DNA of 21,659 bases from a bacterium (GCA_043822925.1 JBDRBF010000047.1:1-21659); one strand, 5' to 3'; numbered from the stretch's first letter, positions 9,425-16,582 are shown. The notes: generated by a model not told the origin, from the letters alone. A program made the numbers and translations.

Positions 9425-10579
9425 CTATACTTTCTGAGTTAAATAACCAGGGCCAGTAACATATTCAAGATAGTTTTCAGGCGTTATCAGATTAAAAGAT
9501 GCGCTTGGGTAGTTCTCTTTCCACACCGATGGAACACTTGCTTTTTTTCCCGGAGACCATTTGACCTCAAACGCATGTAATTCGTTCTCAATATTTTCAA
9601 TAAAGTCGATTTCTTGCCCTTCATATGTTCGCCAAAAATAGCGCGAGCCATAAAAACCGGTATATGCACCATGCTTAAGCCGTTCAATAAACACAAAGTT
9701 TTCCCAAAGCTGCCCCACGTCGCCACGTGTTTCAAGCCCATTAAAATGGGCGATAACGGCATTACGAACACCCAAATCTAAAAAATAATATTTGTGTTTA
9801 CCCGTGATTTCGTTTCTCAAGTTTTTACTAAAACCACCCAGCTTACAAATAACAAAAGACTTCTCAAGCAAATCTATATATTTCACGACTGTTTTTGCAT
9901 CAATGCGTAATTGTATAGCAAGTTCGTTATGTGATACTAATTGCCCAACCTGAAATGCCAGCAGCTTAACAAGATTAAGTAAAATCTCTGACTTTTTTAT
10001 CTTTTCGAGCGACAGAATATCTTTTAATAAATACGAATCGACCAGATCTGTTAAAATACCAATTTTTTCTTGATTCGTTTTTGCAGATAGCACCGCTGGA
10101 TAGCCTCCAAAAATTAAATACTCTTCAAGTTTTTCGCGCAACTCATGCTGGTTATACATTTTTAACAGTTCCATTTGGGCAACCGGATATAACGTACGCG
10201 TCGATTTTCGACCCGTTAATGGCTCACCAACCTGCTGCGATAAATCAAAAGACGAAGATCCTGTGGCGATAATAGATAAATTTGGCACCTGATCTACCAA
10301 AATTTTGAGCGCCATGCCAATATTTGGTATTTGTTGGGCTTCATCTATGGCAATTAAATCATAGCCCTGGGCGTAGCCCAAGATTTTATCAAAATCCTGC
10401 GACCCCAAAAGATTCTGTATTCTTATATTATCTCCTGAATCTAACCTGTATTTAAGCTTTGTCTGACTTAAAAAGTTTTGTAATAAAGTCGTTTTACCAA
10501 CCTGCCGAGGGCCAAACATAATTAAAGCCTGATTTGGCTTCAGGTATTTTTCAAGATCTTTATAATAACGCTCTATCAT
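9425..10579 (-). CDS. AAA_14 ATPase with DUF4143 (PD-(D/E)xK-like C-terminus)
   Basis: Walker A GPRQVGKT, Walker B IAIDEAQ, ATGSS, LTGR, GGYP, KYYFLDLGVRN, EIDFI...AFEVK; start ATG 10579 or TTG 10585. Confidence 0.92.
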   Translation of the reverse strand: MIERYYKDLEKYLKPNQALIMFGPRQVGKTTLLQNFLSQTKLKYRLDSGDNIRIQNLLGSQDFDKILGYAQGYDLIAIDEAQQIPNIGMALKILVDQVPNLSIIATGSSSFDLSQQVGEPLTGRKSTRTLYPVAQMELLKMYNQHELREKLEEYLIFGGYPAVLSAKTNQEKIGILTDLVDSYLLKDILSLEKIKKSEILLNLVKLLAFQVGQLVSHNELAIQLRIDAKTVVKYIDLLEKSFVICKLGGFSKNLRNEITGKHKYYFLDLGVRNAVIAHFNGLETRGDVGQLWENFVFIERLKHGAYTGFYGSRYFWRTYEGQEIDFIENIENELHAFEVKWSPGKKASVPSVWKENYPSASFNLITPENYLEYVTGPGYLTQKV

Positions 10580-10617
10580 GGTCAAAAATCCCCTTTTTTA
10601 TACTTTCTACACGCGTA

Positions 10618-10712
10618 ATCCTGATTTTATCACTAATTTCAGGATACACACTCCAGATGTTAGGTCAAATATCAGGATTAACGATCCTGATTTTCGGTAA
10701 AAATTTCAAACT
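10618..10712. promoter_or_regulatory. Tandem ATCCTGA-N14-TCAGGAT operator-like array with a 33-bp period
   Basis: Left halves at 10618 (atcctga), 10651 (ctccaga) and 10684 (atcctga); right halves tcaggat at 10639 and 10672; third right half degenerate. Confidence 0.65.
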
Positions 10713-10747
10713 TACGGTCACATAAAACGCCTAAAATATCACAAAAT

Positions 10748-10797
10748 TTGACAACCGGTACTGTTTTGCCATAAAGTATGTTTATCTTTTCTATAAT
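10748..10797 (+). promoter_or_regulatory. Promoter region of the asnA leader
   Basis: TTGACA (10748-10753), 18 bp, TAAAGT (10772-10777); perfect TATAAT at 10792-10797. Confidence 0.5.
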
Positions 10798-10822
10798 AAA
10801 TTTTGTACCGAAAGTATTAAAC

Positions 10823-10963
10823 ATGGCACTCGTAATAAAAATCACACACGCAATACTCGCAACAGACACAAGCCTGTTTAGTAAATCTTTTTCAGCAAAT
10901 AATTCCCAGCAAAATAATCAAAATAATAATAACCAAAATATTATAGCTGGGTGCCGCGCGTAA
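10823..10963 (+). CDS. Asn-rich attenuator leader peptide (46 aa)
   Basis: MALVIKITHAILATDTSLFSKSFSANNSQQNNQNNNNQNIIAGCRA*; 9 Asn and 4 Gln in 14 consecutive codons, upstream of asnA. Confidence 0.8.
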   Translation: MALVIKITHAILATDTSLFSKSFSANNSQQNNQNNNNQNIIAGCRA

Positions 10964-11022
10964 TTACATAACAAAATAAACCAAAAAGTGTAACCCCAGC
11001 CATAAAAAAGCTGGGGTTTTTT
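10905..11022 (+). promoter_or_regulatory. Transcription attenuator with segments 1-4
   Basis: CCCAGC 10905-10910, GCTGGG 10946-10951, CCCAGC 10995-11000, GCTGGG 11010-11015. Confidence 0.8.
10992..11022 (+). terminator. Attenuator terminator hairpin (3:4)
   Basis: aaccccagc-cataaaaaa-gctggggtt followed by tttt. Confidence 0.88.
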
Positions 11023-11050
11023 ATTATGTACTCAAAAAGAAAGGGATCGT

Positions 11051-11215
11051 ATGAATAACGATGGCAATAATCCAGACCAACAAAGAACTTACGCAGGAAA
11101 TCAAAATAGTTATAAAAAGAATAGAACCTGGATCCCAGAGCAAATCTGGGATGACAAATTAGAAAGAGAAGAACATGTTAGAAATTATAAAAAAAGCACC
11201 AGCACACATACTTGA
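11051..11215 (+). CDS. Putative second Asn-rich uORF overlapping the asnA start
   Basis: AAGGGA SD; MNNDGNNPDQQRTYAGNQNSYKKN... 54 aa; TGA at 11213-11215 inside asnA in a different frame. Confidence 0.4.
   Translation: MNNDGNNPDQQRTYAGNQNSYKKNRTWIPEQIWDDKLEREEHVRNYKKSTSTHT
11129..11155 (+). repeat. 27-bp palindromic repeat copy
   Basis: tggatcccagagcaaatctgggatgac, 2 mismatches to the 16583-16609 copy. Confidence 0.88.
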
Positions 11216-12227
11216 TCACACGTTAGATAGCACAGAAACAGAACGCGCCATTTCTTTTATCAAAAGATATTTTCAAGACACGCTCGCTCAAGAATTAAAT
11301 CTTTTACGCGTCACCGCACCATTATTTGTTAAAACCGACACCGGCATCAACGACGACCTAAACGGCACCGAACGCCCCGTCTCGTTCACAATAAAAGACG
11401 ACAAAAACGCACAAGCCGTAATCGTACACTCGCTGGCCAAATGGAAACGCATAGCTCTGGCCAAATATCACATGAAGCCAGGGGAGGGTTTATACACTGA
11501 CATGAATGCAATACGAGCCGACGAAGAGCTTGACGAGATCCACTCGTTATATGTTGACCAATGGGATTGGGAACGCGTTATAACACCAGAAGATCGCACA
11601 CTCGTTTTTCTTAAAACAATCGTACGTAAAATATATAAAGTAATTTACGAAACAGAGTTTGCTATCTCAAAAAAATATCCCGCACTTACTACAGACAGAC
11701 AATTACCTGAAGATATTTACTTCCTGCACACCGAAGAACTTGAAGAACTGTACCCAACACTCACACCAAAAGAACGCGAGCATGAAATCTGTAAAAAACA
11801 TGGCGCTGTCTTTTTAATTGGTATTGGCGGGGAACTAAAAAGTGGACACGTACATGATGGGCGCGCGTCAGATTATGACGACTGGTCAACCCCAACAAGT
11901 GCAAAACATACAGGCCTGAACGGCGACATTTTGGTCTGGAACCCAGTACTGGGCACGTCTTTTGAACTTTCTTCTATGGGAATTCGCGTTGACAAAACAG
12001 CACTTGAACGCCAACTTGCGCTACACAGGCATGAGAGCCGTAAAAAATTACTGTATCACAGCTTAGTACTGGATAATAAAATCCCACTGTCTATTGGTGG
12101 CGGCATTGGGCAATCCCGCCTATGCATGTACTTGCTGCGCAAGAAACATATTGGCCAAGTACAAGCCAGCGTCTGGCCTGAAACTATGATCGATAAATAC
12201 AAAAAACTCGGTATTTGTTTACTATAA
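11175..12227 (+). CDS. asnA: Aspartate--ammonia ligase (asparagine synthetase A)
   Basis: LLRVTAPLFV, NDDLNGTERPV, VHSLAKWKR, GLYTDMNAIRADE, YVDQWDWE, HDGRASDYDDW, FELSSMGIRV, SIGGGIGQSR. Confidence 0.98.
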   Translation: MLEIIKKAPAHILDHTLDSTETERAISFIKRYFQDTLAQELNLLRVTAPLFVKTDTGINDDLNGTERPVSFTIKDDKNAQAVIVHSLAKWKRIALAKYHMKPGEGLYTDMNAIRADEELDEIHSLYVDQWDWERVITPEDRTLVFLKTIVRKIYKVIYETEFAISKKYPALTTDRQLPEDIYFLHTEELEELYPTLTPKEREHEICKKHGAVFLIGIGGELKSGHVHDGRASDYDDWSTPTSAKHTGLNGDILVWNPVLGTSFELSSMGIRVDKTALERQLALHRHESRKKLLYHSLVLDNKIPLSIGGGIGQSRLCMYLLRKKHIGQVQASVWPETMIDKYKKLGICLL

Positions 12228-12275
12228 ATTACGCCTGAGAACGTAATCCTCATGCGACAGCACGAAGCTCTCACG

Positions 12276-12299
12276 AGACCGGGGCTTGAACCCCGGTCT
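12276..12299. repeat. 9-bp GC-rich hairpin
   Basis: agaccgggg-cttgaa-ccccggtct. Confidence 0.75.
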
Positions 12300-12356
12300 A
12301 AAAATAAAGAAGCGCCCGGCTCGAATTTATCTCGAGCCGGGCGCTTCTTTATTTTT
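12300..12356. terminator. Bidirectional terminator, perfect 25-bp inverted repeat
   Basis: aaaaataaagaagcgcccggctcga-atttatc-tcgagccgggcgcttctttattttt between convergent genes. Confidence 0.9.
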
Positions 12357-12381
12357 GCAAATCTAAAATTAGTTTTTTAAG

Positions 12382-12876
12382 TTACATATACATGCCAAAT
12401 GGTGGCTCTCTTTCTTGTATCTTCTTGGCAACGGCATCTTCTTTAGCCTCTGCCTGCTCTTCTTCTGATGGGCCAGAAGCAAGAGGCATCAAAAGCTCCA
12501 TAGAAATCACATTAAAAAGTTTTTGAGCCTCCTCTTTTGTCGCGTAACTATTAGTAGCAATAAAACAATATTTTAAAGCTTCAGCCAAATTGGGCTTGCA
12601 TTCTTCGCCTTTATAATCGACACCCTCATATAAAGATGCTGCGATAAAAAGAGCTACTTCATAATAAACTGCTTTATCTTTAACTTTTTTTGCAGCTTCC
12701 AGTAATTGGTCAAATGGTATTTGTGAACGCTGCTTGGCTTTTACGGATTTTGTAGTTTTTTTTGGGATTGCTTTTGTAGTTGCTTTACTTGTTACTTTTG
12801 ACTTCTTCTGGTTATCTGCATGGAGAAATTGTGAAACCAAGACCAAGACTGCACAGACAACAAACTTTTTGTTCAT
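12382..12876 (-). CDS. Exported hypothetical protein with a Sel1-like repeat
   Basis: Signal peptide MNKKFVVCAVLVLVSQFLHA; K/T-rich linker; ASLYEGV...PNLAEALKY resembles a Sel1 repeat; AAGGGGG SD. Confidence 0.7.
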   Translation of the reverse strand: MNKKFVVCAVLVLVSQFLHADNQKKSKVTSKATTKAIPKKTTKSVKAKQRSQIPFDQLLEAAKKVKDKAVYYEVALFIAASLYEGVDYKGEECKPNLAEALKYCFIATNSYATKEEAQKLFNVISMELLMPLASGPSEEEQAEAKEDAVAKKIQEREPPFGMYM

Positions 12877-16563: not shown

Positions 16564-16582
16564 CACCTTCCCAAATTTTTTT

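Follow-up and report, generated by a model that had tools for sequence, protein, structure and literature searches.

The asparagine synthetase gene asnA of an uncultured Dependentiae (TM6) bacterium is very probably controlled by ribosome-mediated transcription attenuation at a leader peptide, with charged tRNA-Asn as the signal sensed. The element was found in a 21,659-nucleotide stretch of DNA (GCA_043822925.1 JBDRBF010000047.1:1-21659), which as a whole is here called the window. In the proposed switch, a transcript would start near 10784 and a ribosome would enter a 46-codon leader. When Asn-tRNA is ample, the ribosome would pass through the Asn/Gln run to the stop codon at 10961 and mask segment 2 (10940-10951); with segment 2 masked, segments 3 and 4 would pair, and RNA polymerase would terminate at the T-tract at 11017-11022. 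When Asn-tRNA is short, the ribosome would stall on the Asn codons among codons 26-37 (10898-10933), covering segment 1 and leaving segment 2 free to pair with newly made segment 3, such that no terminator would form and transcription would read through into asnA. The genome encodes an AsnRS (630 bits, above cut-off), and thus free Asn made by AsnA would charge tRNA-Asn, which makes the sensing logic coherent. Translation of the leader, stalling within it, and a response to Asn are what the features described below predict.

A sequence-only reading of the window had proposed a switch of this kind, and when the sequence was re-read by coordinates, every position it gave held base for base. In the 46-codon leader, codons 26-39 comprise 9 Asn codons and 4 Gln codons as described, the remaining one being Ser, and the four hexamers were each located where they had been placed, at 10905, 10946, 10995, and 11010. 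The 3:4 pair is likewise the 9-bp terminator with a T-tract that had been claimed: the arms 10992-11000 and 11010-11018 enclose a 9-nt loop and are followed by six T (Table 1). A Shine-Dalgarno-like purine-rich stretch lies 9-13 nt 5' of the leader ATG. The transcript start predicted from the promoter-like sequence falls 3' of an in-frame ATG at 10778, and 10823 therefore would be the first ATG of the message. A terminated transcript would be about 235 nt long, and the terminator is separated from asnA by about 150 nt. The next gene upstream (9425-10585) encodes an AAA_14/DUF4143 ATPase, and as it lies divergently on the opposite strand and points away, the terminator hairpin is not its own. 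A simple terminator scan listed the hairpin on the minus strand only, because the scan was limited to loops of 8 nt and the plus-strand loop is 9 nt.

Table 1. Features of the asnA leader region and of related modules elsewhere (window coordinates unless a contig is named)
Feature	Position	Strand	Remarks
Promoter-like -35/-10 pair	10748..10777	+	10/12 consensus positions, 18-nt spacer; top match in the region; consensus match only
Leader ORF, 46 codons	10823..10963	+	ATG 10823, stop 10961-10963
Putative regulatory codon run	10898..10939	+	Codons 26-39: 9 Asn (8 AAT, 1 AAC), 4 Gln, 1 Ser
Segment 1, partner of segment 2	10905..10910	+	1:2 pair in MFE fold
Segment 2, antiterminator 5' arm	10940..10951	+	Within ORF codons 40-43; hexamer complement at 10946-10951
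Segment 3	10992..11005	+	Terminator 5' arm 10992-11000; antiterminator 3' arm 10995-11005; hexamer 10995-11000
Segment 4 and T-tract, terminator 3' arm	11010..11022	+	Hexamer complement 11010-11015; arm 11010-11018
uORF2	11039..11215	+	Strong Shine-Dalgarno 11039-11045; ATG 11051; ORF 11051-11215; Asn/Asp opening; overlaps asnA start
REP-like palindromic repeat	11127..11157	+	Inside uORF2; 9-nt tail has 90 genome copies vs ~11 expected
asnA, aspartate-ammonia ligase, putative regulated gene	11175..12227	+	Pfam AsnA PF03590, E 2.1e-106
Permease-linked module L107	G000 contig 43, 3571-3665	-
Permease-linked module L148	G012 contig 6
Permease-linked module L149	G022 contig 23

The arrangement of the leader is not due to chance. 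The window is contig 47 of its genome (G000), which comprises 1.52 Mb in 86 contigs at 37% G+C, and across this genome the hexamer and its complement jointly occur at 0.27 per kb. When both strands were scanned for the ordered quadruplet of hexamers within 120 nt, two occurrences were counted. The pattern is its own reverse complement, and we infer that both counts are one locus read once per strand and that the quadruplet is unique in the genome. Clusters of at least 8 Asn in 14 residues are found in only 8 regions genome-wide, this leader included, among approximately 3.03 million six-frame windows. We note that two further short ORFs with 8 Asn in 14 residues lie on the minus strand of the same genome, on contig 40 near 1260 and on contig 34 near 38886. 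Finally, the MFE fold of 10890-11030 combines the 1:2 and 3:4 pairs at -27.9 kcal/mol (z -2.9), and 3 of 200 shuffles were equally good.

The leader is conserved together with asnA. The gene is present in 13 of the 35 genomes of the window's family and in 23 of the 261 genomes of the phylum, the 261-genome order set being the entire phylum set. There were 25 asnA matches, and 20 of them had usable upstream DNA; left out were L011 and L022, which sit at contig ends, the gene fragments L024 and L025, and the divergent L023. In all 20 analysable Dependentiae loci, asnA is preceded by a leader ORF, a segment 2 within that ORF, and a terminator, and the element stays while the genes farther upstream vary. 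The homologous leader ORFs are open over 27-76 codons. A scan of 20 loci gave a terminator in every one but L023 (19 of 20), and in one more genome (G012) the terminator was seen directly. L023 (G157) does contain an Asn-rich ORF, but its alternative fold is not significant (z -1.1), and for that reason it was excluded from the counts of canonical loci. The leader of L069 (candidate division TM6 bacterium GW2011_GWF2_38_10), a member of the window's family, is identical to that of L007. One public record, L026, is named an uncultured Pseudomonadota bacterium; it is identical with contig 56 of genome G045, which groups in the window's Dependentiae family, and the submitter's label is probably wrong.

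The Asn run itself is kept in nearly all of these leaders. In 18 of the 20 homologues, spread over six families, the 22-25 or so codons that lead up to segment 2 include 6-11 Asn (19 loci were tabulated, and the 20th, in G012, was counted by eye). The two leaders without the run, L014 and L019, differ from each other. L014 has 3 Asn only, with Ser codons in place of Asn, and a weak antiterminator for which 25 of 200 shuffles were as good. L019 has 4 Asn in a Cys-rich leader while its stems are intact. Both are leaders in decay or change. Retention of the run bears on a different reading, in which the leader is a pyrBI-like sensor of coupling in general: whenever the leading ribosome slowed relative to RNA polymerase, termination would change, without Asn having any special part in it. 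Two features would suit such a sensor: segment 2 is within the ORF, such that any position of the ribosome could decide the fold, and the 1:2 pair is weak. A general sensor, however, needs no run of Asn codons, and 18 of the 20 leaders keep 6-11 of them across six families before a gene for Asn synthetase. We consider general coupling very improbable.

The element can be separated from asnA by another gene. In G012, a covariance model found it 830 nt farther upstream, before the peptide deformylase gene that precedes asnA. There the deformylase gene (L122; contig 16, 1640-2152) stands between the Asn attenuator on one side and a second short ORF (uORF2) with asnA on the other, and thus the attenuator would control deformylase too. 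The covariance model, R1, was built from 19 leaders and used to search 151 genomes; its ten best matches, at 64.9 bits or more, all lie at asnA loci. At E values of 0.01 or below, R1 matched in 99 of the 151 genomes. Matches below about 60 bits were considered as further attenuators and dismissed, as those inspected in G000 are mostly gene-end terminators (C55, C20, and C28).

Linkage to asnA also speaks to whether the element might be a small gene or small RNA in its own right, which has its own terminator and lies next to asnA by accident. In favor of that reading, the terminated transcript of about 235 nt would encode an Asn/Gln-rich peptide. The link to asnA, however, holds at every one of the 20 loci while upstream neighbors differ, and the confinement of the best R1 matches to asnA loci tells the same story. 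Moreover, the peptide is not conserved outside the run, and a covarying 2:3 helix, described below, has no role in a plain terminator. An accidental neighbor is the least credible of the explanations we considered.

Both of the competing helices covary. They were assessed in an alignment of 19 loci (A2) extending from 12 nt before segment 2 through the T-tract; an earlier MAFFT alignment of whole leaders (A1) was dropped because it misplaced segment 2. In A2, the terminator is 98.8% paired, four of its pairs are changed on both sides (19 cells), and its score was reached by none of 500 shuffles, while controls in which the helix was slid gave 26-65% pairing. RNAalifold predicts the same terminator helix unprompted. 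The antiterminator (A2 columns 12-21 with 83-92) is 86.6% paired, with seven pairs changed on both sides (14 cells), and again none of 500 shuffles reached its score; its slid controls gave 30-53% pairing. Segments 2, 3, and 4 are altered jointly in L010, L013, L016, and L020/L021. In L010, segment 2 is read in a different frame, and conservation at that locus is thus of the RNA, not of the peptide. The sequence-only reading had proposed collecting asnA leaders from relatives to look for Asn runs and covarying stems, and that comparison was positive, with the run in 18 of the 20 leaders and covariation in both terminator and antiterminator.

The energetics of the two upstream pairings differ. 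For the 2:3 duplex, the 98 nt lying upstream were dinucleotide-shuffled 200 times per locus and the energies compared: no shuffle did as well in 15 loci, 1 of 200 did in two loci, 2 of 200 in one locus, and 25 of 200 in L014. The antiterminator thus beats nearly all dinucleotide shuffles in 18 of 19 loci, although related genomes are not independent and the shuffle counts therefore overstate significance. The 1:2 duplex was equalled by no more than 20 of 200 shuffles in 10 of 19 loci, and in none by as few as 5 of 200. This hairpin is weakly supported across homologues, most of which have a C-rich patch immediately 5' of the Asn run or within it. The attenuator first proposed for the window is therefore supported as regards its leader, terminator, and antiterminator, all of which are conserved, and its behavior in the footprint folds below; its 1:2 pair is significant in no single locus.

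Conservation of the run at the nucleotide level raises another explanation, that the ORF is incidental and that a trans-acting RNA-binding protein or a small molecule, comparable to TRAP or PyrR, sets the choice between terminator and antiterminator by recognizing a triplet repeat. The run is a near-regular triplet repeat with strong nucleotide conservation in several loci, and translation of the leader is a prediction. Nevertheless, the run lies in an open, ATG-started frame that includes segment 2 at all 20 loci, despite a G+C content of 37% at which stop codons are frequent, and the leader stop keeps a fixed distance to segment 3. Moreover, synonymous changes among the Asn and Gln codons are seen from locus to locus, and the repeated codon is that of the product of the downstream enzyme. 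Finally, no Rfam riboswitch or protein-binding leader matched. Recognition of the repeat by a trans-acting factor is, in our view, very unlikely.

The spacing of the elements suits a leader read by a ribosome. Across the tabulated loci, segment 3 lies 25-36 nt beyond the leader stop codon, and the stop codon lies 5-27 nt beyond segment 2. For the 17 tabulated loci with a retained run, the last Asn codon is 3-17 nt from segment 2, compared with 23 nt in L014 and 27 nt in L019. The sequence-only reading had called for folding the leader with and without a ribosome footprint, and the outcome agreed with it. When the transcript was folded to 11004, that is, before segment 4, with a 28-nt ribosome footprint masked, the 2:3 helix was the MFE structure, with 7 pairs, for every placement of the A site from Asn 26 to Asn 37. 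With the A site at Asn 39 the helix had 3 pairs, and none formed once the ribosome had reached the stop codon. If stalling took place on the final Asn codon (10937), the ribosome would itself hide segment 2. Ribosome-free RNA to 11004 also prefers the 2:3 pair, and a default off state in the absence of translation is therefore not established by these folds. At full length, the terminator and antiterminator structures come to -26.3 and -25.1 kcal/mol, respectively, so that the order of co-transcriptional folding should decide between them.

RNA from the environment offers a weak hint of readthrough. Groundwater metatranscriptome contigs identical to the window cover 10949-11136 (depth 2) and 11360-11589, at depths of 2-3, and the first of these spans the terminator, as readthrough RNA would; these are contigs and not reads, and DNA carry-over is possible. 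Stretches of 10400-12400 that lack RNA contigs are uninformative.

The element resembles the classical leader-peptide attenuators, in which codons for the end product are placed in a short leader and the position of the ribosome sets the choice between terminator and antiterminator. The enterobacterial his leader (hisL; Rfam His_leader RF00514) and trpL, pheL, thrL, leuL, and ilvL all have a run of product codons in a short leader, as seen here, and in leaders of the his/trp class, too, the terminator 5' arm can pair upstream instead, with ribosome position choosing the fold. The leader described here departs from that class in that Asn would be sensed with Gln mixed in, asnA is the single target, and the phylum is Dependentiae. 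It also differs in having a weak 1:2 hairpin and a conserved second mini-ORF past the terminator. In sequence and by model it does not resemble those leaders: between 10000 and 12000, the best match to an Rfam leader family was Trp_leader at 17.5 bits, against a gathering threshold of 41 (E 2.7), and no other leader family matched up to an E value of 10.

Control of asnA is familiar from elsewhere in other forms. In E. coli the gene is governed by the activator AsnC, and in Firmicutes by Asn T-box leaders. AsnC and T-boxes would share with the present element the purpose of making more AsnA when Asn is short, and T-boxes likewise read the charging of tRNA-Asn through a choice of terminator and antiterminator, but the sensor here would be a translating ribosome. 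A T-box covariance model gave no match between 10000 and 12000 up to an E value of 10. The divergent neighbor of asnA in the window is the AAA_14/DUF4143 ATPase gene and not a regulator of the AsnC/Lrp family.

A leader of the same logic is found outside the phylum. The closest relatives of the Dependentiae AsnA proteins beyond the phylum are those of Bacteroidota, at 56-63% identity. In a member of the Marinifilaceae (Bacteroidota; L103), asnA is preceded by a 28-codon ORF in which 8 of 12 residues are Asn, together with a segment 2 and a terminator. L103 shares logic and target with the Dependentiae leaders, whereas its stems and peptide are unrelated to theirs in sequence. It is the only one of the 78 loci screened outside Dependentiae with at least 7 Asn in 12 residues; one more has 5.

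The sequence-only reading knew of no characterized Asn leader-peptide attenuator, and neither an Asn leader peptide nor an asnA attenuator is described in the part of the literature that was searched, a part that leaves most subscription journals outside its scope. Vitreschak et al. 2004 and Lopatovskaya et al. 2010 reportedly surveyed attenuators by comparative genomics, and their surveys could bear on novelty. Leader-peptide attenuation is a textbook case of gene control coupled to translation, but to our knowledge the described examples are limited to a few amino acids, namely, Trp, His, Phe, Leu, Thr, and Ile/Val. An attenuator specific for Asn on asnA would add a new specificity to that known class and would be a third solution to the regulation of asnA, beside AsnC and T-boxes. 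It would also place the mechanism in Dependentiae, host-dependent bacteria with small genomes in which almost no regulation has been studied. As a compact, covarying switch of about 200 nt, it should be easy to test and might be reused as an Asn sensor.

A simple model of Asn sensing does not account for three features: the 150-nt spacer, uORF2, and the Gln codons. Of the 19 tabulated leaders, 18 have Gln codons scattered through the run, 1-7 in each, and these vary in number and position and include runs of 3-4. One explanation is that the attenuator responds to Gln-tRNA as well as to Asn-tRNA, as a measure of amide-nitrogen supply, such that stalling at either codon would switch on asnA. AsnA would then be the sole amide-forming enzyme of the cell, and Asn would also feed the GatCAB amidotransferase that makes Gln-tRNA. 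The genome would fit such a scheme, as it has no GlnRS above cut-off, encodes GatB (587 bits), and, at 92% completeness, yielded no glutamine synthetase. The varied number and position of the Gln codons argue for continuing selection over mere inheritance, and the one Bacteroidota leader seen, L103, has few Gln codons. Among the 261 genomes of the phylum, 50 have glutamine synthetase and 23 have asnA, and no genome holds both; by genus, glutamine synthetase occurs in none of the 12 asnA genera and in 33 of the 133 others. The mutual exclusion of asnA and glutamine synthetase, like the mixed Asn/Gln run, points to a putative link between the switch and amide nitrogen.

Several points speak against this reading. 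The zero overlap at the level of genera is roughly a 1-in-20 outcome, a rough estimate, and gene absences come from incomplete genomes and are not proof. Moreover, the leaders share one ancestor, related genomes are not independent, and the Gln codons may merely break up an A/T-rich repeat. Amidotransferases of the GatCAB type can release ammonia from Gln or from Asn, according to the review PMC2330236, which would permit Asn to serve as the donor. The same review indicates, however, that bacterial GatCAB prefers Gln and that the H. pylori enzyme uses Gln with 130-fold higher efficiency than Asn. On balance, sensing of both tRNAs is possible but rather doubtful, and we retain Asn alone as the preferred signal.

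A second short ORF follows the terminator. Openings of the uORF2 type are found in 11 loci from four families (the window, L002, L006, L008, L009, L011, L013, and L015-L018). The start of uORF2, which has a strong ribosome-binding site, lies 22-30 nt 3' of the T-tract, which is where asnA itself starts in loci without uORF2. In 10 of the 11 loci, codons 2-8 include two or more Asn and one or more Asp, with synonymous variation, while the end point is variable: uORF2 is 8-54 codons long and overlaps or abuts the start of asnA in some loci. In G012, where the attenuator precedes the deformylase gene, uORF2 stays with asnA. No terminator of its own accompanies uORF2, and the window's genome encodes Rho. 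The tnaC leader of the E. coli tna operon, in which a stalled ribosome blocks Rho, may be a model, as each is a short ORF that stands 5' of a structural gene and is followed by an untranslated spacer; the likeness is a lead only.

A hairpin inside uORF2, just before the ribosome-binding site of asnA (11127-11157), was considered as a second regulatory stem and rejected, as it is a REP-like repeat found throughout the genome. Its tail is mostly preceded by the same hairpin, and further copies, on the minus strand of the window, have their tails near 16581 and 17173.

We speculate on a wider reading, which we think unlikely as a whole, in which the leader is a two-codon amide-nitrogen sensor, uORF2 is a second checkpoint that acts through Rho or through translational coupling to asnA, and leader-peptide attenuation is a general means of controlling amino-acid supply in these bacteria. 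In a cell that has neither glutamine synthetase nor GlnRS, AsnA would be the only enzyme to turn ammonia into amide and would serve both AsnRS and GatCAB. If either charged tRNA ran low, the ribosome would halt within the mixed Asn/Gln run and the attenuator would open, and the readthrough RNA would then meet uORF2, the first codons of which, Asn and Asp, correspond to the product and the substrate of AsnA. If this is true, attenuation may be a general control of amino-acid supply in bacteria that are poor in regulators and dependent on hosts.

Modules related to the asnA element occur at other genes. A segment 2 and terminator module with a different leader precedes an AA_permease_2 gene (E 6e-39) in three genomes, with matches to R1 at 55-58 bits (Table 1). 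The permease leader is Thr/Ser-rich in G000 and has a four-Asn run in G012, and these modules point to a family of leader-peptide attenuators on genes of amino-acid supply. Finally, contig 58 of G000 (9710-9805 and the next 200 nt; L108) contains two short ORFs upstream of a DIT1_PvcA-family gene, the first of them Phe/Leu-rich, and each is followed by a terminator-like hairpin.
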